Sequence record: LR745709
Origin: Escherichia phage T7
Strand: one strand, 5' to 3'
DNA: 40,210 nucleotides
Shown: piece by piece, positions 24,843 through 40,210 of the stretch
Layout of the letters: every line of letters starts with the position of its first letter
How positions within the stretch are numbered: position 1 is the stretch's first letter
Notes under the pieces: model-generated
Databases searched by the model: none
The model's input: the letters and a program-made list of their open reading frames with translations, nothing else
What the model was told of the DNA's origin: nothing
Made by a program: the position numbers and the translations under genes

Positions 24843-27227
24843 ATGGCACTCATTAGCCAATCAATCAAGAACTTGAAGGGTGGTATCAGCCAACAGCCTG
24901 ACATCCTTCGTTATCCAGACCAAGGGTCACGCCAAGTTAACGGTTGGTCTTCGGAGACCGAGGGCCTCCAAAAGCGTCCACCTCTTGTTTTCTTAAATAC
25001 ACTTGGAGACAACGGTGCGTTAGGTCAAGCTCCGTACATCCACCTGATTAACCGAGATGAGCACGAACAGTATTACGCTGTGTTCACTGGTAGCGGAATC
25101 CGAGTGTTCGACCTTTCTGGTAACGAGAAGCAAGTTAGGTATCCTAACGGTTCCAACTACATCAAGACCGCTAATCCACGTAACGACCTGCGAATGGTTA
25201 CTGTAGCAGACTATACGTTCATCGTTAACCGTAACGTTGTTGCACAGAAGAACACAAAGTCTGTCAACTTACCGAATTACAACCCTAATCAAGACGGATT
25301 GATTAACGTTCGTGGTGGTCAGTATGGTAGGGAACTAATTGTACACATTAACGGTAAAGACGTTGCGAAGTATAAGATACCAGATGGTAGTCAACCTGAA
25401 CACGTAAACAATACGGATGCCCAATGGTTAGCTGAAGAGTTAGCCAAGCAGATGCGCACTAACTTGTCTGATTGGACTGTAAATGTAGGGCAAGGGTTCA
25501 TCCATGTGACCGCACCTAGTGGTCAACAGATTGACTCCTTCACGACTAAAGATGGCTACGCAGACCAGTTGATTAACCCTGTGACCCACTACGCTCAGTC
25601 GTTCTCTAAGCTGCCACCTAATGCTCCTAACGGCTACATGGTGAAAATCGTAGGGGACGCCTCTAAGTCTGCCGACCAGTATTACGTTCGGTATGACGCT
25701 GAGCGGAAAGTTTGGACTGAGACTTTAGGTTGGAACACTGAGGACCAAGTTCTATGGGAAACCATGCCACACGCTCTTGTGCGAGCCGCTGACGGTAATT
25801 TCGACTTCAAGTGGCTTGAGTGGTCTCCTAAGTCTTGTGGTGACGTTGACACCAACCCTTGGCCTTCTTTTGTTGGTTCAAGTATTAACGATGTGTTCTT
25901 CTTCCGTAACCGCTTAGGATTCCTTAGTGGGGAGAACATCATATTGAGTCGTACAGCCAAATACTTCAACTTCTACCCTGCGTCCATTGCGAACCTTAGT
26001 GATGACGACCCTATAGACGTAGCTGTGAGTACCAACCGAATGGCAATCCTTAAGTACGCCGTTCCGTTCTCAGAAGAGTTACTCATCTGGTCCGATGAAG
26101 CACAATTCGTCCTGACTGCCTCGGGTACTCTCACATCTAAGTCGGTTGAGTTGAACCTAACGACCCAGTTTGACGTACAGGACCGAGCGAGACCTTTTGG
26201 GATTGGGCGTAATGTCTACTTTGCTAGTCCGAGGTCCAGCTTCACGTCCATCCACAGGTACTACGCTGTGCAGGATGTCAGTTCCGTTAAGAATGCTGAG
26301 GACATTACATCACACGTTCCTAACTACATCCCTAATGGTGTGTTCAGTATTTGCGGAAGTGGTACGGAAAACTTCTGTTCGGTACTATCTCACGGGGACC
26401 CTAGTAAAATCTTCATGTACAAATTCCTGTACCTGAACGAAGAGTTAAGGCAACAGTCGTGGTCTCATTGGGACTTTGGGGAAAACGTACAGGTTCTAGC
26501 TTGTCAGAGTATCAGCTCAGATATGTATGTGATTCTTCGCAATGAGTTCAATACGTTCCTAGCTAGAATCTCTTTCACTAAGAACGCCATTGACTTACAG
26601 GGAGAACCCTATCGTGCCTTTATGGACATGAAGATTCGATACACGATTCCTAGTGGAACATACAACGATGACACATTCACTACCTCTATTCATATTCCAA
26701 CAATTTATGGTGCAAACTTCGGGAGGGGCAAAATCACTGTATTGGAGCCTGATGGTAAGATAACCGTGTTTGAGCAACCTACGGCTGGGTGGAATAGCGA
26801 CCCTTGGCTGAGACTCAGCGGTAACTTGGAGGGACGCATGGTGTACATTGGGTTCAACATTAACTTCGTATATGAGTTCTCTAAGTTCCTCATCAAGCAG
26901 ACTGCCGACGACGGGTCTACCTCCACGGAAGACATTGGGCGCTTACAGTTACGCCGAGCGTGGGTTAACTACGAGAACTCTGGTACGTTTGACATTTATG
27001 TTGAGAACCAATCGTCTAACTGGAAGTACACAATGGCTGGTGCCCGATTAGGCTCTAACACTCTGAGGGCTGGGAGACTGAACTTAGGGACCGGACAATA
27101 TCGATTCCCTGTGGTTGGTAACGCCAAGTTCAACACTGTATACATCTTGTCAGATGAGACTACCCCTCTGAACATCATTGGGTGTGGCTGGGAAGGTAAC
27201 TACTTACGGAGAAGTTCCGGTATTTAA
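24843..27227 (+). CDS. 12: Gene 12, tail tubular protein B (nozzle, 794 aa)
   Basis: ORF MALISQSIKNLKGGISQQPDILRYPDQGSRQVNGW... preceded by taaggaggctc. Confidence 0.97.
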   Translation: MALISQSIKNLKGGISQQPDILRYPDQGSRQVNGWSSETEGLQKRPPLVFLNTLGDNGALGQAPYIHLINRDEHEQYYAVFTGSGIRVFDLSGNEKQVRYPNGSNYIKTANPRNDLRMVTVADYTFIVNRNVVAQKNTKSVNLPNYNPNQDGLINVRGGQYGRELIVHINGKDVAKYKIPDGSQPEHVNNTDAQWLAEELAKQMRTNLSDWTVNVGQGFIHVTAPSGQQIDSFTTKDGYADQLINPVTHYAQSFSKLPPNAPNGYMVKIVGDASKSADQYYVRYDAERKVWTETLGWNTEDQVLWETMPHALVRAADGNFDFKWLEWSPKSCGDVDTNPWPSFVGSSINDVFFFRNRLGFLSGENIILSRTAKYFNFYPASIANLSDDDPIDVAVSTNRMAILKYAVPFSEELLIWSDEAQFVLTASGTLTSKSVELNLTTQFDVQDRARPFGIGRNVYFASPRSSFTSIHRYYAVQDVSSVKNAEDITSHVPNYIPNGVFSICGSGTENFCSVLSHGDPSKIFMYKFLYLNEELRQQSWSHWDFGENVQVLACQSISSDMYVILRNEFNTFLARISFTKNAIDLQGEPYRAFMDMKIRYTIPSGTYNDDTFTTSIHIPTIYGANFGRGKITVLEPDGKITVFEQPTAGWNSDPWLRLSGNLEGRMVYIGFNINFVYEFSKFLIKQTADDGSTSTEDIGRLQLRRAWVNYENSGTFDIYVENQSSNWKYTMAGARLGSNTLRAGRLNLGTGQYRFPVVGNAKFNTVYILSDETTPLNIIGCGWEGNYLRRSSGI

Positions 27228-33500: not shown

Positions 33501-34552
33501 TAGGGACCTTGAAGTATTCAACACAGGAACTGGCTGCTCGCTCTCCGTGGACTAAGCTACTGAACGGAACCACTAACTACCTTCTGGATGCTGCGCGTCA
33601 AGGTATGCTTGGGGATGTTATTAGTGCCACCCTAACAGGTAAGACTACCCGCTGGGAGAAAGAAGGCTTCCTTCGTGGTGCCTCCGTAACTCCTGAGCAG
33701 ATGGCTGGCATCAAGTCTCTCATCAAGGAACATATGGTACGCGGTGAGGACGGGAAGTTTACCGTTAAGGACAAGCAAGCGTTCTCTATGGACCCACGGG
33801 CTATGGACTTATGGAGACTGGCTGACAAGGTAGCTGATGAGGCAATGCTGCGTCCACATAAGGTGTCCTTACAGGATTCCCATGCGTTCGGAGCACTAGG
33901 TAAGATGGTTATGCAGTTTAAGTCTTTCACTATCAAGTCCCTTAACTCTAAGTTCCTGCGAACCTTCTATGATGGATACAAGAACAACCGAGCGATTGAC
34001 GCTGCGCTGAGCATCATCACCTCTATGGGTCTCGCTGGTGGTTTCTATGCTATGGCTGCACACGTCAAAGCATACGCTCTGCCTAAGGAGAAACGTAAGG
34101 AGTACTTGGAGCGTGCACTGGACCCAACCATGATTGCCCACGCTGCGTTATCTCGTAGTTCTCAATTGGGTGCTCCTTTGGCTATGGTTGACCTAGTTGG
34201 TGGTGTTTTAGGGTTCGAGTCCTCCAAGATGGCTCGCTCTACGATTCTACCTAAGGACACCGTGAAGGAACGTGACCCAAACAAACCGTACACCTCTAGA
34301 GAGGTAATGGGCGCTATGGGTTCAAACCTTCTGGAACAGATGCCTTCGGCTGGCTTTGTGGCTAACGTAGGGGCTACCTTAATGAATGCTGCTGGCGTGG
34401 TCAACTCACCTAATAAAGCAACCGAGCAGGACTTCATGACTGGTCTTATGAACTCCACAAAAGAGTTAGTACCGAACGACCCATTGACTCAACAGCTTGT
34501 GTTGAAGATTTATGAGGCGAACGGTGTTAACTTGAGGGAGCGTAGGAAATAA
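30596..34552 (+). CDS. 16: Gene 16, internal virion core protein with N-terminal lytic transglycosylase domain (1318 aa)
   Basis: N-terminal SLT-like motif (...AWTESRFVPTAKSKTGPLGMMQFTKATAKALG...). Largest ORF in the window. Confidence 0.97.
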   Translation: MDKYDKNVPSDYDGLFQKAADANGVSYDLLRKVAWTESRFVPTAKSKTGPLGMMQFTKATAKALGLRVTDGPDDDRLNPELAINAAAKQLAGLVGKFDGDELKAALAYNQGEGRLGNPQLEAYSKGDFASISEEGRNYMRNLLDVAKSPMAGQLETFGGITPKGKGIPAEVGLAGIGHKQKVTQELPESTSFDVKGIEQEATAKPFAKDFWETHGETLDEYNSRSTFFGFKNAAEAELSNSVAGMAFRAGRLDNGFDVFKDTITPTRWNSHIWTPEELEKIRTEVKNPAYINVVTGGSPENLDDLIKLANENFENDSRAAEAGLGAKLSAGIIGAGVDPLSYVPMVGVTGKGFKLINKALVVGAESAALNVASEGLRTSVAGGDADYAGAALGGFVFGAGMSAISDAVAAGLKRSKPEAEFDNEFIGPMMRLEARETARNANSADLSRMNTENMKFEGEHNGVPYEDLPTERGAVVLHDGSVLSASNPINPKTLKEFSEVDPEKAARGIKLAGFTEIGLKTLGSDDADIRRVAIDLVRSPTGMQSGASGKFGATASDIHERLHGTDQRTYNDLYKAMSDAMKDPEFSTGGAKMSREETRYTIYRRAALAIERPELQKALTPSERIVMDIIKRHFDTKRELMENPAIFGNTKAVSIFPESRHKGTYVPHVYDRHAKALMIQRYGAEGLQEGIARSWMNSYVSRPEVKARVDEMLKELHGVKEVTPEMVEKYAMDKAYGISHSDQFTNSSIIEENIEGLVGIENNSFLEARNLFDSDLSITMPDGQQFSVNDLRDFDMFRIMPAYDRRVNGDIAIMGSTGKTTKELKDEILALKAKAEGDGKKTGEVHALMDTVKILTGRARRNQDTVWETSLRAINDLGFFAKNAYMGAQNITEIAGMIVTGNVRALGHGIPILRDTLYKSKPVSAKELKELHASLFGKEVDQLIRPKRADIVQRLREATDTGPAVANIVGTLKYSTQELAARSPWTKLLNGTTNYLLDAARQGMLGDVISATLTGKTTRWEKEGFLRGASVTPEQMAGIKSLIKEHMVRGEDGKFTVKDKQAFSMDPRAMDLWRLADKVADEAMLRPHKVSLQDSHAFGALGKMVMQFKSFTIKSLNSKFLRTFYDGYKNNRAIDAALSIITSMGLAGGFYAMAAHVKAYALPKEKRKEYLERALDPTMIAHAALSRSSQLGAPLAMVDLVGGVLGFESSKMARSTILPKDTVKERDPNKPYTSREVMGAMGSNLLEQMPSAGFVANVGATLMNAAGVVNSPNKATEQDFMTGLMNSTKELVPNDPLTQQLVLKIYEANGVNLRERRK

Positions 34553-34572
34553 TACGACTCACTATAGGGAGA
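34550..34572 (+). promoter_or_regulatory. T7 promoter phi17 (class III); also drives the inserted trxA
   Basis: taatacgactcactatagggaga; +1 near 34567. No other promoter lies between it and trxA. Confidence 0.93.
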
Positions 34573-34624: not shown

Positions 34625-36280
34625 ATGGCTAACGTAATTAAAACCGTTTTGACTTACCAGTTAGATGGCTCCAATCGTGATTTTAATATCCCGTTTGAGT
34701 ATCTAGCCCGTAAGTTCGTAGTGGTAACTCTTATTGGTGTAGACCGAAAGGTCCTTACGATTAATACAGACTATCGCTTTGCTACACGTACTACTATCTC
34801 TCTGACAAAGGCTTGGGGTCCAGCCGATGGCTACACGACCATCGAGTTACGTCGAGTAACCTCCACTACCGACCGATTGGTTGACTTTACGGATGGTTCA
34901 ATCCTCCGCGCGTATGACCTTCACGTCGCTCAGATTCAAACGATGCACGTAGCGGAAGAGGCCCGTGACCTCACTGCGGATACTATCGGTGTCAATAACG
35001 ATGGTCACTTGGATGCTCGTGGTCGTCGAATTGTGAACCTAGCGAACGCCGTGGATGACCGCGATGCTGTTCCGTTTGGTCAACTAAAGACCATGAACCA
35101 GAACTCATGGCAAGCACGTAATGAAGCCTTACAGTTCCGTAATGAGGCTGAGACTTTCAGAAACCAAGCGGAGGGCTTTAAGAACGAGTCCAGTACCAAC
35201 GCTACGAACACAAAGCAGTGGCGCGATGAGACCAAGGGTTTCCGAGACGAAGCCAAGCGGTTCAAGAATACGGCTGGTCAATACGCTACATCTGCTGGGA
35301 ACTCTGCTTCCGCTGCGCATCAATCTGAGGTAAACGCTGAGAACTCTGCCACAGCATCCGCTAACTCTGCTCATTTGGCAGAACAGCAAGCAGACCGTGC
35401 GGAACGTGAGGCAGACAAGCTGGAAAATTACAATGGATTGGCTGGTGCAATTGATAAGGTAGATGGAACCAATGTGTACTGGAAAGGAAATATTCACGCT
35501 AACGGGCGCCTTTACATGACCACAAACGGTTTTGACTGTGGCCAGTATCAACAGTTCTTTGGTGGTGTCACTAATCGTTACTCTGTCATGGAGTGGGGAG
35601 ATGAGAACGGATGGCTGATGTATGTTCAACGTAGAGAGTGGACAACAGCGATAGGCGGTAACATCCAGTTAGTAGTAAACGGACAGATCATCACCCAAGG
35701 TGGAGCCATGACCGGTCAGCTAAAATTGCAGAATGGGCATGTTCTTCAATTAGAGTCCGCATCCGACAAGGCGCACTATATTCTATCTAAAGATGGTAAC
35801 AGGAATAACTGGTACATTGGTAGAGGGTCAGATAACAACAATGACTGTACCTTCCACTCCTATGTACATGGTACGACCTTAACACTCAAGCAGGACTATG
35901 CAGTAGTTAACAAACACTTCCACGTAGGTCAGGCCGTTGTGGCCACTGATGGTAATATTCAAGGTACTAAGTGGGGAGGTAAATGGCTGGATGCTTACCT
36001 ACGTGACAGCTTCGTTGCGAAGAGCTCTGGTTGGACTGAGGTATGGCAAGGCTCTGCTGGTGGTGGTGTTTCAGTAAGCCTCTCACAGGATGTCCGCTGG
36101 AGAACTATCTGGATTCTAGCTAATAATGGCATGTGTTCTGTTCAGATTGGAGCTGATGCTACTTACTTCATGGTGGTTATGGGTGGTTGGTTGAAGTTCA
36201 CAATTTCCAACAACGGGAGAACTTTCCGTAACGACCAAGATCGAAATACAGTACCTAAGCAAATCTTAGTTCGAAACTAA
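34625..36280 (+). CDS. 17: Gene 17, tail fibre protein (551 aa): T7-type N-terminus and shaft with a divergent C-terminal receptor-binding tip
   Basis: MANVIKTVLTYQLDGSNRDFNIPFEYLARKF... through ...GGKWLDAYLRDSFVAKS is T7 gp17. From about residue 468 the sequence (SGWTEVWQGSAGGGVSVSLSQDVRWRTIWILANNGMCSVQIGADATYFMVVMGGWLKFTISNNGRTFRNDQDRNTVPKQILVRN) departs from the T7 tip as I recall it, and the gene is 2 codons shorter. Confidence 0.93.
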   Translation: MANVIKTVLTYQLDGSNRDFNIPFEYLARKFVVVTLIGVDRKVLTINTDYRFATRTTISLTKAWGPADGYTTIELRRVTSTTDRLVDFTDGSILRAYDLHVAQIQTMHVAEEARDLTADTIGVNNDGHLDARGRRIVNLANAVDDRDAVPFGQLKTMNQNSWQARNEALQFRNEAETFRNQAEGFKNESSTNATNTKQWRDETKGFRDEAKRFKNTAGQYATSAGNSASAAHQSEVNAENSATASANSAHLAEQQADRAEREADKLENYNGLAGAIDKVDGTNVYWKGNIHANGRLYMTTNGFDCGQYQQFFGGVTNRYSVMEWGDENGWLMYVQRREWTTAIGGNIQLVVNGQIITQGGAMTGQLKLQNGHVLQLESASDKAHYILSKDGNRNNWYIGRGSDNNNDCTFHSYVHGTTLTLKQDYAVVNKHFHVGQAVVATDGNIQGTKWGGKWLDAYLRDSFVAKSSGWTEVWQGSAGGGVSVSLSQDVRWRTIWILANNGMCSVQIGADATYFMVVMGGWLKFTISNNGRTFRNDQDRNTVPKQILVRN

Positions 36281-36385
36281 CTTCGGGGCGCGCGGCGTCT
36301 GTGACCACCTGATTCTTGAGTAGCGGGGCCGAAAGGCCCCGCCAAGGCAACCGACGGAACGGCCACACGATTAAGGAGGTAACCC
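36281..36385 (+). other. Inserted GC-rich linker with GNRA-capped hairpin and strong RBS, upstream of trxA
   Basis: Perfect 8-bp stem gcggggcc-gaaa-ggccccgc (36323-36342) with no U-tract, then ttaaggaggtaaccc-ATG. About 65-70% GC versus about 48% for the phage. Not part of the wild-type 17/17.5 intergenic region. Confidence 0.8.
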
Positions 36386-36718
36386 ATGAGCGATAAAATC
36401 ATTCACCTGACCGATGACTCTTTTGATACCGACGTGCTGAAAGCTGATGGTGCAATTCTGGTTGATTTCTGGGCAGAGTGGTGCGGCCCTTGCAAAATGA
36501 TCGCTCCAATCCTGGACGAAATTGCGGACGAATATCAGGGTAAGCTGACTGTGGCCAAACTGAACATTGACCAGAACCCTGGCACCGCACCGAAATACGG
36601 TATCCGTGGCATCCCAACTCTGCTGCTGTTCAAAAACGGTGAAGTGGCAGCAACCAAAGTAGGCGCTCTGTCTAAAGGCCAACTGAAAGAGTTCCTGGAC
36701 GCCAACCTGGCTTAATGA
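36386..36718 (+). CDS. trxA: Thioredoxin 1 (109 aa), identical in protein to E. coli TrxA, ending in tandem stops TAA TGA; inserted cargo gene
   Basis: [109 protein letters not shown], with the WCGPC active site. Sits between gene 17 and gene 17.5, where T7 has no gene. Confidence 0.97.
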
Positions 36719-36776
36719 TTGGTAAATCACAAGGAAAGACGTGTAGTCCACGGATGGACTCTCAAGGAGGTACAAG

Positions 36777-36980
36777 GTGCTATCATTAGACTTTAACAAC
36801 GAATTGATTAAGGCTGCTCCAATTGTTGGGACGGGTGTAGCAGATGTTAGTGCTCGACTGTTCTTTGGGTTAAGCCTTAACGAATGGTTCTACGTTGCTG
36901 CTATCGCCTACACAGTGGTTCAGATTGGTGCCAAGGTAGTCGATAAGATGATTGACTGGAAGAAAGCCAATAAGGAGTGA
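36777..36980 (+). CDS. 17.5: Gene 17.5, class II holin (67 aa), GTG start
   Basis: MLSLDFNNELIKAAPIVGTGVADVSARLFFGLSLNEWFYVAAIAYTVVQIGAKVVDKMIDWKKANKE, preceded by caaggaggtacaag. Confidence 0.9.
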   Translation: MLSLDFNNELIKAAPIVGTGVADVSARLFFGLSLNEWFYVAAIAYTVVQIGAKVVDKMIDWKKANKE

Positions 36981-36985
36981 TATGT

Positions 36986-37255
36986 ATGGAAAAGGATAAG
37001 AGCCTTATTACATTCTTAGAGATGTTGGACACTGCGATGGCTCAGCGTATGCTTGCGGACCTTTCGGACCATGAGCGTCGCTCTCCGCAACTCTATAATG
37101 CTATTAACAAACTGTTAGACCGCCACAAGTTCCAGATTGGTAAGTTGCAGCCGGATGTTCACATCTTAGGTGGCCTTGCTGGTGCTCTTGAAGAGTACAA
37201 AGAGAAAGTCGGTGATAACGGTCTTACGGATGATGATATTTACACATTACAGTGA
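36986..37255 (+). CDS. 18: Gene 18, terminase small subunit (89 aa)
   Basis: ATG at 36986 after taaggagtgatatgt. MEKDKSLITFLEMLDTAMAQRMLADLSDHERRSPQLYNAINKLLDRHKF... Confidence 0.88.
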   Translation: MEKDKSLITFLEMLDTAMAQRMLADLSDHERRSPQLYNAINKLLDRHKFQIGKLQPDVHILGGLAGALEEYKEKVGDNGLTDDDIYTLQ

Positions 37256-37257
37256 TA

Positions 37258-37300
37258 TACTCAAGGCCACTACAGATAGTGGTCTTTATGGATGTCATTG
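37258..37300 (+). promoter_or_regulatory. RNase III processing hairpin R18.5
   Basis: tatactcaaggccactacagatagtggtctttatgga, the same motif family as other T7 RNase III sites. Confidence 0.6.
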
Positions 37301-37349
37301 TCTATACGAGATGCTCCTACGTGAAATCTGAAAGTTAACGGGAGGCATT

Positions 37350-37781
37350 ATGCTAGAATTTTTACGTAAGCTAATCCCTTGGGTTCTCGCTGGGATGCTA
37401 TTCGGGTTAGGATGGCATCTAGGGTCAGACTCAATGGACGCTAAATGGAAACAGGAGGTACACAATGAGTACGTTAAGAGAGTTGAGGCTGCGAAGAGCA
37501 CTCAAAGAGCAATCGATGCGGTATCTGCTAAGTATCAAGAAGACCTTGCCGCGCTGGAAGGGAGCACTGATAGGATTATTTCTGATTTGCGTAGCGACAA
37601 TAAGCGGTTGCGCGTCAGAGTCAAAACTACCGGAACCTCCGATGGTCAGTGTGGATTCGAGCCTGATGGTCGAGCCGAACTTGACGACCGAGATGCTAAA
37701 CGTATTCTCGCAGTGACCCAGAAGGGTGACGCATGGATTCGTGCGTTACAGGATACTATTCGTGAACTGCAACGTAAGTAG
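37350..37781 (+). CDS. 18.5: Gene 18.5, Rz-like i-spanin (143 aa)
   Basis: N-terminal transmembrane segment (LIPWVLAGMLFGLGWHLG) then coiled-coil-like periplasmic domain. Contains the embedded gene 18.7. Confidence 0.88.
   Translation: MLEFLRKLIPWVLAGMLFGLGWHLGSDSMDAKWKQEVHNEYVKRVEAAKSTQRAIDAVSAKYQEDLAALEGSTDRIISDLRSDNKRLRVRVKTTGTSDGQCGFEPDGRAELDDRDAKRILAVTQKGDAWIRALQDTIRELQRK
37465..37716 (+). CDS. 18.7: Gene 18.7, Rz1-like o-spanin lipoprotein embedded in gene 18.5 (83 aa)
   Basis: +1-frame ORF wholly inside gene 18.5, with a lipobox-like LICVATISGC and Pro-rich mature part. Confidence 0.78.
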   Translation: MSTLRELRLRRALKEQSMRYLLSIKKTLPRWKGALIGLFLICVATISGCASESKLPEPPMVSVDSSLMVEPNLTTEMLNVFSQ

Positions 37782-37802
37782 GAAATCAAGTAAGGAGGCA
37801 AT

Positions 37803-39563
37803 GTGTCTACTCAATCCAATCGTAATGCGCTCGTAGTGGCGCAACTGAAAGGAGACTTCGTGGCGTTCCTATTCGTCTTATGGAAGGCGCTAAACCTACC
37901 GGTGCCCACTAAGTGTCAGATTGACATGGCTAAGGTGCTGGCGAATGGAGACAACAAGAAGTTCATCTTACAGGCTTTCCGTGGTATCGGTAAGTCGTTC
38001 ATCACATGTGCGTTCGTTGTGTGGTCCTTATGGAGAGACCCTCAGTTGAAGATACTTATCGTATCAGCCTCTAAGGAGCGTGCAGACGCTAACTCCATCT
38101 TTATTAAGAACATCATTGACCTGCTGCCATTCCTATCTGAGTTAAAGCCAAGACCCGGACAGCGTGACTCGGTAATCAGCTTTGATGTAGGCCCAGCCAA
38201 TCCTGACCACTCTCCTAGTGTGAAATCAGTAGGTATCACTGGTCAGTTAACTGGTAGCCGTGCTGACATTATCATTGCGGATGACGTTGAGATTCCGTCT
38301 AACAGCGCAACTATGGGTGCCCGTGAGAAGCTATGGACTCTGGTTCAGGAGTTCGCTGCGTTACTTAAACCGCTGCCTTCCTCTCGCGTTATCTACCTTG
38401 GTACACCTCAGACAGAGATGACTCTCTATAAGGAACTTGAGGATAACCGTGGGTACACAACCATTATCTGGCCTGCTCTGTACCCAAGGACACGTGAAGA
38501 GAACCTCTATTACTCACAGCGTCTTGCTCCTATGTTACGCGCTGAGTACGATGAGAACCCTGAGGCACTTGCTGGGACTCCAACAGACCCAGTGCGCTTT
38601 GACCGTGATGACCTGCGCGAGCGTGAGTTGGAATACGGTAAGGCTGGCTTTACGCTACAGTTCATGCTTAACCCTAACCTTAGTGATGCCGAGAAGTACC
38701 CGCTGAGGCTTCGTGACGCTATCGTAGCGGCCTTAGACTTAGAGAAGGCCCCAATGCATTACCAGTGGCTTCCGAACCGTCAGAACATCATTGAGGACCT
38801 TCCTAACGTTGGCCTTAAGGGTGATGACCTGCATACGTACCACGATTGTTCCAACAACTCAGGTCAGTACCAACAGAAGATTCTGGTCATTGACCCTAGT
38901 GGTCGCGGTAAGGACGAAACAGGTTACGCTGTGCTGTACACACTGAACGGTTACATCTACCTTATGGAAGCTGGAGGTTTCCGTGATGGCTACTCCGATA
39001 AGACCCTTGAGTTACTCGCTAAGAAGGCAAAGCAATGGGGAGTCCAGACGGTTGTCTACGAGAGTAACTTCGGTGACGGTATGTTCGGTAAGGTATTCAG
39101 TCCTATCCTTCTTAAACACCACAACTGTGCGATGGAAGAGATTCGTGCCCGTGGTATGAAAGAGATGCGTATTTGCGATACCCTTGAGCCAGTCATGCAG
39201 ACTCACCGCCTTGTAATTCGTGATGAGGTCATTAGGGCCGACTACCAGTCCGCTCGTGACGTAGACGGTAAGCATGACGTTAAGTACTCGTTGTTCTACC
39301 AGATGACCCGTATCACTCGTGAGAAAGGCGCTCTGGCTCATGATGACCGATTGGATGCCCTTGCGTTAGGCATTGAGTATCTCCGTGAGTCCATGCAGTT
39401 GGATTCCGTTAAGGTCGAGGGTGAAGTACTTGCTGACTTCCTTGAGGAACACATGATGCGTCCTACGGTTGCTGCTACGCATATCATTGAGATGTCTGTG
39501 GGAGGAGTTGATGTGTACTCTGAGGACGATGAGGGTTACGGTACGTCTTTCATTGAGTGGTGA
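37803..39563 (+). CDS. 19: Gene 19, terminase large subunit (DNA maturase B, 586 aa), GTG start
   Basis: Walker-A-like FRGIGKSF near the N-terminus, C-terminal nuclease-type region. Preceded by taaggaggcaat. Confidence 0.96.
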
Positions 39564-39644
39564 TTTATGCATTAGGACTGCATAGGGATGCACTATAGAC
39601 CACGGATGGTCAGTTCTTTAAGTTACTGAAAAGACACGATAAAT

Positions 39645-39667
39645 TAATACGACTCACTATAGGGAGA
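39645..39667 (+). promoter_or_regulatory. T7 promoter phiOR
   Basis: taatacgactcactatagggaga; +1 near 39662. Confidence 0.93.
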
Positions 39668-39821
39668 GGAGGGACGAAAGGTTACTATATAGATACTGAA
39701 TGAATACTTATAGAGTGCATAAAGTATGCATAATGGTGTACCTAGAGTGACCTCTAAGAATGGTGATTATATTGTATTAGTATCACCTTAACTTAAGGAC
39801 CAACATAAAGGGAGGAGACTC

Positions 39822-39971
39822 ATGTTCCGCTTATTGTTGAACCTACTGCGGCATAGAGTCACCTACCGATTTCTTGTGGTACTTTGTGCTGCCCTTGGGT
39901 ACGCATCTCTTACTGGAGACCTCAGTTCACTGGAGTCTGTCGTTTGCTCTATACTCACTTGTAGCGATTAG
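39822..39971 (+). CDS. 19.5: Gene 19.5, small hydrophobic protein (49 aa)
   Basis: ATG at 39822 after aaagggaggagactc. MFRLLLNLLRHRVTYRFLVVLCAALGYASLTGDLSSLESVVCSILTCSD. Confidence 0.7.
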   Translation: MFRLLLNLLRHRVTYRFLVVLCAALGYASLTGDLSSLESVVCSILTCSD

Positions 39972-40039
39972 GGTCTTCCTGACCGACTGATGGCTCACCG
40001 AGGGATTCAGCGGTATGATTGCATCACACCACTTCATCC

Positions 40040-40210
40040 CTATAGAGTCAAGTCCTAAGGTATACCCATAAAGAGCCTCTAATGGTCTATCCTAAGGTCT
40101 ATACCTAAAGATAGGCCATCCTATCAGTGTCACCTAAAGAGGGTCTTAGAGAGGGCCTATGGAGTTCCTATAGGGTCCTTTAAAATATACCATAAAAATC
40201 TGAGTGACTA
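40040..40210. repeat. Right-end short repeat array abutting the (absent) right terminal repeat
   Basis: Imperfect cctaa(a/g)g-type repeats (cctaaggtatacc, cctaaggtctatacctaaagatagg, cacctaaagaggg). Window ends ...aaaatctgagtgacta, where the right terminal repeat would start. Confidence 0.75.

Follow-up and report, generated by a model that had tools for sequence, protein, structure and literature searches.

Between the stop codon of the tail-fibre gene 17 (TAA, 36278-36280) and the start codon of trxA, a genome deposited as Escherichia phage T7 (LR745709) carries a linker of 105 nt (36281-36385). Its G+C content is 64.8%, compared to 48.4% for the window, which here means the whole stretch of 40,210 nucleotides that was analysed. 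An earlier note had estimated 65-70% G+C for the linker, close to the measured value, and had described it as a foreign or synthetic junction that could not be traced to a source, with what looked like an RNA-stabilising or insulating hairpin. Where does this linker come from, and what is it doing between a tail-fibre gene and a marker gene? Here, we describe the linker as, very probably, a transplanted module for target recognition by a diversity-generating retroelement (DGR), joined to a synthetic ribosome-binding site (RBS) for a selection marker.

The window was compared to T7 (V01146) by BLAST. Positions 1-36022 are collinear with T7 apart from four substitutions and one 1-nt insertion, T7 36022-36284 is swapped for window 36023-36717, and positions 36718-40210 (+ strand) correspond to T7 36285-39777 (the 17/17.5 intergenic region and genes 17.5, 18, 18.5 and 19) with 100% identity over 3,493 nt. 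The right end of the assembly lacks the 160-bp right terminal repeat. Non-T7 DNA in the window is limited to a tail-fibre tip from Yersinia phage Yep-phi, the 105-nt linker and trxA, and the insert is an assembly from four sources: T7, Yep-phi, BPP-1, and synthetic RBS/trxA DNA.

These features match a published laboratory phage. In Table S4 of Grigonyte et al. (2020; PMC7077284), phPM is listed with gp17 residues 1-466 joined to Yep-phi gp17 residues 485-569 and with plasmid pAG32, and Table S6 gives it a single SNP, 26041 A>G. This diagnostic SNP is present in the window at 26042, and the window, carrying both the phPM design and the SNP, is therefore phPM. It was the sole chimaera to infect E. 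coli in that study, in which trxA served as the marker and selection was on a delta-trxA host (PMC7077284). Besides the reported change at 26042, the window differs from V01146 by three substitutions (24158, 34922 and 34976) and by one inserted A (1896), all presumably lab-strain differences.

The hybrid gene 17 (34625-36280, + strand, 551 aa) joins T7 gp17 residues 1-466 (to 36022) to the Yep-phi tip (36023-36280), which agrees with HQ333270 at 258/259 nt and shares 98.8% amino-acid identity. Comparison with native Yep-phi DNA and with the published g-block yields the same single tip difference, a G>A change at 36257 (+ strand; GAG>AAG, E545K), which is missing from the SNP table of PMC7077284. 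E545K alters the receptor-binding tip of the one chimaera that proved infective, and could be adaptive or spontaneous.

The Bordetella phage segment

The linker was matched by sensitive BLAST against 50,697 phage records. Matches with E ≤2e-29 were to Bordetella phages BPP-1, BMP-1, BIP-1 and vB_BbrP_003 and to two sibling T7 constructs only, and all other matches among these records were 19-23 nt long with E ≥1. Over window positions 35700-36800, no phage record reached a coverage of 80%. The first 80 nt (36281-36360, + strand) copy BPP-1 from the 3' end of the mtd variable repeat VR1 to the start of avd (bbp7), at 79/80 nt against AY029185 (L001:1501-1580), with the sole mismatch at 36355. 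The suspicion of foreign or synthetic DNA was thus correct, as 36281-36360 come from BPP-1 and 36361-36385 are synthetic; the source, held earlier to be beyond naming, can be named. BLASTN places the segment in BPP-1, where its natural neighbours are mtd and avd rather than trxA.

Alignment with BPP-1 divides the segment, all on the + strand, into a series of short elements. The last 3 nt of the VR1 variable part (36281-36283) precede the (GC)14 of the IMH (cggggcgcgcggcg, 36284-36297), delimited by comparing the ends of BPP-1 VR1 and the template repeat (TR) and defined in PMC3240598; this (GC)14 (CGGGGCGCGCGGCG) agrees at every base with the BPP-1 copies in VR1 and in TR, as in a DGR target. 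The 21-bp IMH element follows (tctgtgaccacctgattcttg, 36298-36318; definition in PMC3240598). Aligned with the 3' end of TR (tctgtgcccatcaccttcttg), it has the VR-type base at 5/5 discriminating positions and 5 mismatches to the TR IMH*, again as in a DGR target. Next come a 4-nt spacer, AGTA (36319-36322), of the same length as in wild-type BPP-1, and the hairpin or cruciform (36323-36342, assigned to neither strand), with arms at 36323-36330 and 36335-36342 and a GAAA loop at 36331-36334. The perfect 8-bp stem and GAAA loop reported earlier are exact (gcggggcc-gaaa-ggccccgc), all-GC in the stem and identical to BPP-1. A third cis-feature is thus present, a GC-rich 8-bp stem with a GRNA-type GAAA loop 4 nt past the IMH, where the published criteria are a GC-rich stem of 7-10 bp and a 4-nt GRNA loop on the sense strand (PMC3240598).

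The old mtd stop codon, TAG (36321-36323; mtd CDS end, L001:1543), is not reached by translation here, gene 17 having ended at 36278-36280. Downstream of the hairpin lie the mtd-avd intergenic bases caaggcaaccg (36343-36353) and the first 7 nt of avd (36354-36360; BPP-1 ...CAAGGCAACCGATGGAAC, bbp7/avd starting at L001:1574), in which the ATG has become ACG (36355). This change probably serves to remove a spurious start upstream of the trxA RBS. The arrangement of (GC)14, VR-type 21-bp element, 4-nt spacer, stem and GAAA loop is that of the wild-type BPP-1 VR1 3' boundary, base for base.

Natural relatives of the module show which of its parts are diagnostic. Twenty-one IMG/VR viral contigs (L127-L147) contain the IMH 28-mer without a mismatch, and the order of IMH and then stop codon is found in 21 viral contigs and one Thiobacillus genome. 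Of the 20 loci with enough downstream sequence, 17 have a hairpin after the IMH and stop, and most relatives then show an avd-like ATG (ATGGA...). Stems vary among them (GCGGGGCC, GGCGGC, GGCGCCC), but a GRNA loop (GAAA or GACA) is retained, which fits the published rule that structure, not sequence, is conserved. Two contigs (L139 and L146) have the 5' arm without the 3' arm and have thus lost the hairpin, and three (L133, L134 and L145) have other downstream sequence (AAGCGAGCGCGAGCGAGC) in which no inverted repeat was seen. The Thiobacillus locus (Thiobacillus sp. MAG JBKBRW010000002.1, L070:2150-2520, minus strand) is a natural BPP-1-like DGR target, with the same (GC)14, an IMH matching at 38/42 positions, no difference in the GCGGGGCC-GAAA hairpin and, further downstream, ATGGAACC as an avd-like start, so the BPP-1-type module exists beyond Bordetella phages. 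A scan with the 20-nt hairpin gave at least 120 matches in unrelated GC-rich genomes; among the matches listed, only the one in the same Thiobacillus genome also has the IMH. The hairpin alone is therefore uninformative, and it is the 42 nt of IMH before it that identify the module.

A DGR target after gene 17

In BPP-1, the Brt-Avd reverse transcriptase makes cDNA from TR RNA, with mutagenesis at adenines; this cDNA is integrated by its 3' end at (GC)14, and its 5' end is resolved by homology with upstream sequence. The five IMH/IMH* mismatches set the direction of information transfer (PMC3240598) and make it one-way, from TR to VR, while the hairpin/cruciform raises homing efficiency. Guo et al. 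(2011; PMC3240598) found that the IMH and a 24-bp stretch directly 3' of VR are needed for efficient mutagenic retrohoming, and mapped the function of the hairpin by mutagenesis: the stem acts as structure, with 8-10 GC-rich bp optimal, both the length of the 4-nt loop and its GAAA sequence are critical, and the hairpin influences the efficiency of cDNA integration and not its site, which lies within (GC)14. In the same study, an IMH and hairpin placed right after a heterologous gene were sufficient to target the DGR to that gene. The order of target gene, GC14, IMH and stem-loop is also functional in E. coli with plasmid-borne avd-TR-brt, and deletion of the stem-loop there severely impairs editing (PMC12875486). 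In the window, the hairpin together with the preceding 42 nt is the BPP-1 cruciform with its IMH, a DNA-level signal for cDNA retrohoming (PMC3240598, PMC12875486), and this takes the place of the RNA stabiliser or insulator proposed earlier.

By this rule, the gene 17 tip is apparently the intended 'VR-like' target upstream of the module. Its codons would act as a programmable variable region if avd, brt and a tip-matching TR were supplied from a plasmid, which seems to have been the intent. The Gibson primers for pAG_32 encode the junction of TTCGAAACTAA with CTTCGGGGCGCGCGGCG (supplement, PMC7077284); a junction written into primers was built on purpose. The fragment starts 3 nt before (GC)14, in a piece of mtd that codes for nothing in this phage, and ends at the disabled avd start. 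The paper does not mention the IMH, the hairpin or DGR targeting for this construct, its supplement has 0 occurrences of them, and in its main text 'diversity-generating' stands only within a reference title (PMC7077284); given this silence, it is from the construct that we infer the design intent. No paper on DGR targeting of T7 gp17 was found in the literature searched.

The arrangement follows that of the VR-KanS cassette (Guo et al., 2011) and the pTarget reporters (PMC12875486), in which the gene stands directly before the IMH and hairpin and avd-TR-brt are provided in trans. Unlike these, the target in the window sits on a lytic phage genome rather than on a plasmid or chromosome, keeps its own stop codon, and has no published donor TR. 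Unlike in BPP-1, the module is untranslated, following the stop codon of an unrelated T7/Yep-phi gp17, and the sequence upstream is not a C-type-lectin VR. Since the module stands after a stop codon, whereas the natural IMH is coding, a cognate TR would need to include that stop.

The rest of the BPP-1 system is absent from the window. There is no TR (no second copy of the tip, and collinearity with T7 outside 36023-36717), and neither brt nor avd is present, with 7 nt of avd left and its start codon destroyed. The module is consequently inert, or dormant, in this genome. Of the 65 adenines in the 259-nt tip, 0 are changed relative to native Yep-phi, the single change being at a G, which indicates that homing has not occurred. 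All 3 BPP-1-type cis-features are found, as against 0 of the 3 that would complete a DGR, namely a TR, an RT with Avd, and variation specific to adenines; the element is an engineered orphan DGR target module, not a DGR.

The fragment might instead be a passive cloning passenger from a shared mtd-trxA cassette, with neither an intended nor an actual function, a reading that we consider improbable. Two sibling constructs, the phAG_x phages LR745707 and LR745708, are T7 gp17(1-466)-Mtd fusions with trxA and have the same T7 backbone, the same recoded trxA and 73 nt of the BPP-1 IMH/hairpin; in both, mtd with its natural IMH and the hairpin stands before trxA, the IMH being the natural coding end of mtd. 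The published mtd g-block contains the hairpin, and PMC7077284 describes only tail-fibre fusions and marker selection. Against a passenger, the first base of the phPM fragment lies within the mtd reading frame, 3 nt ahead of (GC)14 and past the Yep-phi stop; a transplant of the IMH would begin at this point, which is no natural boundary of a cassette. Dedicated Gibson primers also carry the junction. Past the hairpin, phPM departs from the siblings in linker and RBS, with 7 more BPP-1 nt, the avd ATG>ACG change and another RBS, so this part was not simply inherited from the sibling cassettes. The primer names in the supplement, moreover, make the Yep-phi plasmid the backbone for the mtd construct, not the reverse. 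In LR745708 (L003:2500-2580), the DGR hairpin is also separated from the trxA RBS by a terminator-like stem and T-run (ctagcccgc...gcggctaggggtttttt), absent from the window. The sibling Mtd-fusion phages are non-infective, whereas the Yep-phi hybrid is infective (PMC7077284).

Hairpin, transcription and the trxA marker

The transplanted target module is followed by a synthetic ribosome-binding region (ggccacacgattaaggaggtaaccc, 36361-36385, + strand) without a match in BPP-1 or other phages, in E. coli genomes or in plasmids. As read earlier, it contains a full consensus Shine-Dalgarno sequence (TAAGGAGGT, 36372-36380), 5 nt 5' of the trxA ATG (36386). A search of PLSDB plasmids with the linker gave no match, so a natural plasmid or part source for 36361-36385 was not found. 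The plasmid table names the RBS 'B0034' (PMC7077284). The window has ggccacacgattaaggaggtaaccc where the siblings have tttaaggaggtcaa. The registry part B0034 is aaagaggagaaa, which is neither the RBS of the window nor that of the siblings.

The marker itself is a recoded E. coli trxA (36386-36715, + strand) that differs from the native gene at 46/330 nt, 43 of which are third positions of codons, and that encodes a protein identical to native TrxA. Each of the 5,426 E. coli genomes aligns only from the trxA ATG onward, with 86.1% identity, and the native 105 nt upstream of trxA are unrelated to the linker. A captured host trxA locus was rejected on these grounds. The earlier note had allowed that the linker might prove natural beside trxA; in E. 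coli the upstream sequence is unrelated, and the natural match is the mtd-avd region of a Bordetella phage. With a linker of this origin, the insert did not come from a host as a single captured piece.

Transcription of trxA comes from outside the linker. The nearest upstream promoter is the T7 late promoter phi17 (34550-34572, + strand; 23/23 of the T7 promoter consensus and equal to phi17 of V01146), a T7-promoter scan found none in the linker, and no sigma-70-like or terminator-like sites were called in it. Without an internal promoter, trxA is read from upstream late transcripts, which adds the promoters before phi17 to the phi17 read-through on which trxA had been said to depend. No T-run follows the hairpin, which is succeeded by CAAGGCAACC, and an intrinsic terminator, whether rho-independent or T7 class I, was ruled out by this and by the absence of a called terminator in the linker, in agreement with the earlier reading. 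Growth of the phage on the delta-trxA host and its need for genes 17.5-19 show that the hairpin neither terminates nor blocks expression.

Apart from the repeat at 36323-36342, the 40,210 bases hold no perfect hairpin with at least 8 bp of stem and a 3-8-nt loop. In 200 shuffles, an 8-bp stem made of G and C alone, with a 4-nt loop, arose 0 times, while 0.63 perfect hairpins of any composition with an 8-bp stem and 4-nt loop are expected per shuffle; the mere existence of the hairpin is therefore not significant, and its GC-only stem is. Predicted folding energies are -19.1 kcal/mol as RNA and, as DNA, -12.2 kcal/mol for the top strand (z -4.9) and -11.9 kcal/mol for the bottom strand (z -6.2). 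RNA folding thus upholds a stable hairpin, as the earlier note expected, and gives no such support to the linker as a whole, which folds no better than shuffles (z = -0.38).

An RNA-level part, that is, a 5' or 3' mRNA-stabilising hairpin or an insulator that tunes trxA, is a highly unlikely account of the same bases. The hairpin would form in the late transcript at the predicted RNA stability, lies 43 nt 5' of the trxA ATG, and leaves the Shine-Dalgarno sequence largely unpaired in the predicted fold; a side-effect on mRNA decay may also follow from it. Against this, a DNA element whose role in DGR homing has been mapped shares with it the exact sequence, loop and spacing as well as the 42 nt of upstream context, an Rfam scan of 36000-36900 (E≤1) found no family, and the fold of the whole linker is unexceptional. 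A stem of 8 bp is, in addition, too short for RNase III processing. The sibling LR745706 carries trxA without gene 17 (Table S4) and matches the window only from the RBS onward (36371); compared from the start of this match only, the marker was used there without the IMH-hairpin of the window. The hairpin is transcribed within late mRNA, where it is an RNA-level passenger only.

Practically negligible is a natural element, either an intrinsic terminator or a host fragment captured with trxA: the bare 20-nt hairpin does occur in at least 120 unrelated bacterial genomes, with a T-run after 39/120, but here the T-run is absent and no terminator is called, the phage is viable with essential genes 17.5-19 downstream, E. 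coli matches only the trxA ORF (86.1%), which is synonymously recoded, and a plasmid match is absent.

Meaning of the module

As a transplanted DGR target, the module might be of use with its machinery restored. BPP-1 avd, brt and a TR matching 36150-36318, provided in trans while the phage infects E. coli, could continuously diversify the receptor-binding tip of a T7-type fibre in vivo, provided that DGR homing works on the linear, rapidly replicating T7 genome. Given the position of the T7 origin, the replication fork moves rightward through this region. The target is co-directional with this fork, the orientation favoured in E. coli, where targets co-directional with replication are preferred (PMC12875486). 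That phPM is a latent 'DGR-ready' lytic phage, with E545K perhaps a first adaptive step on E. coli, is a tentative idea and rather unlikely. Gene 3 (about 10258-10707) encodes T7 endonuclease I, a junction-resolving enzyme, in a genome that also has the cruciform-capable repeat at 36323-36342; the viability of the phage shows that this inverted repeat is tolerated.

The module is known and man-made: a 2011 publication already described the element and how it is used, and the genome was constructed in the laboratory for a study that appeared in 2020. Mildly new is only the omission of the module from the text of the source paper. The biological importance of the module is small, and its value lies in annotation and provenance, as a genome deposited as "Escherichia phage T7" holds an undocumented Bordetella phage retroelement module that could be taken for natural variation of T7, or for a terminator or RNA element.
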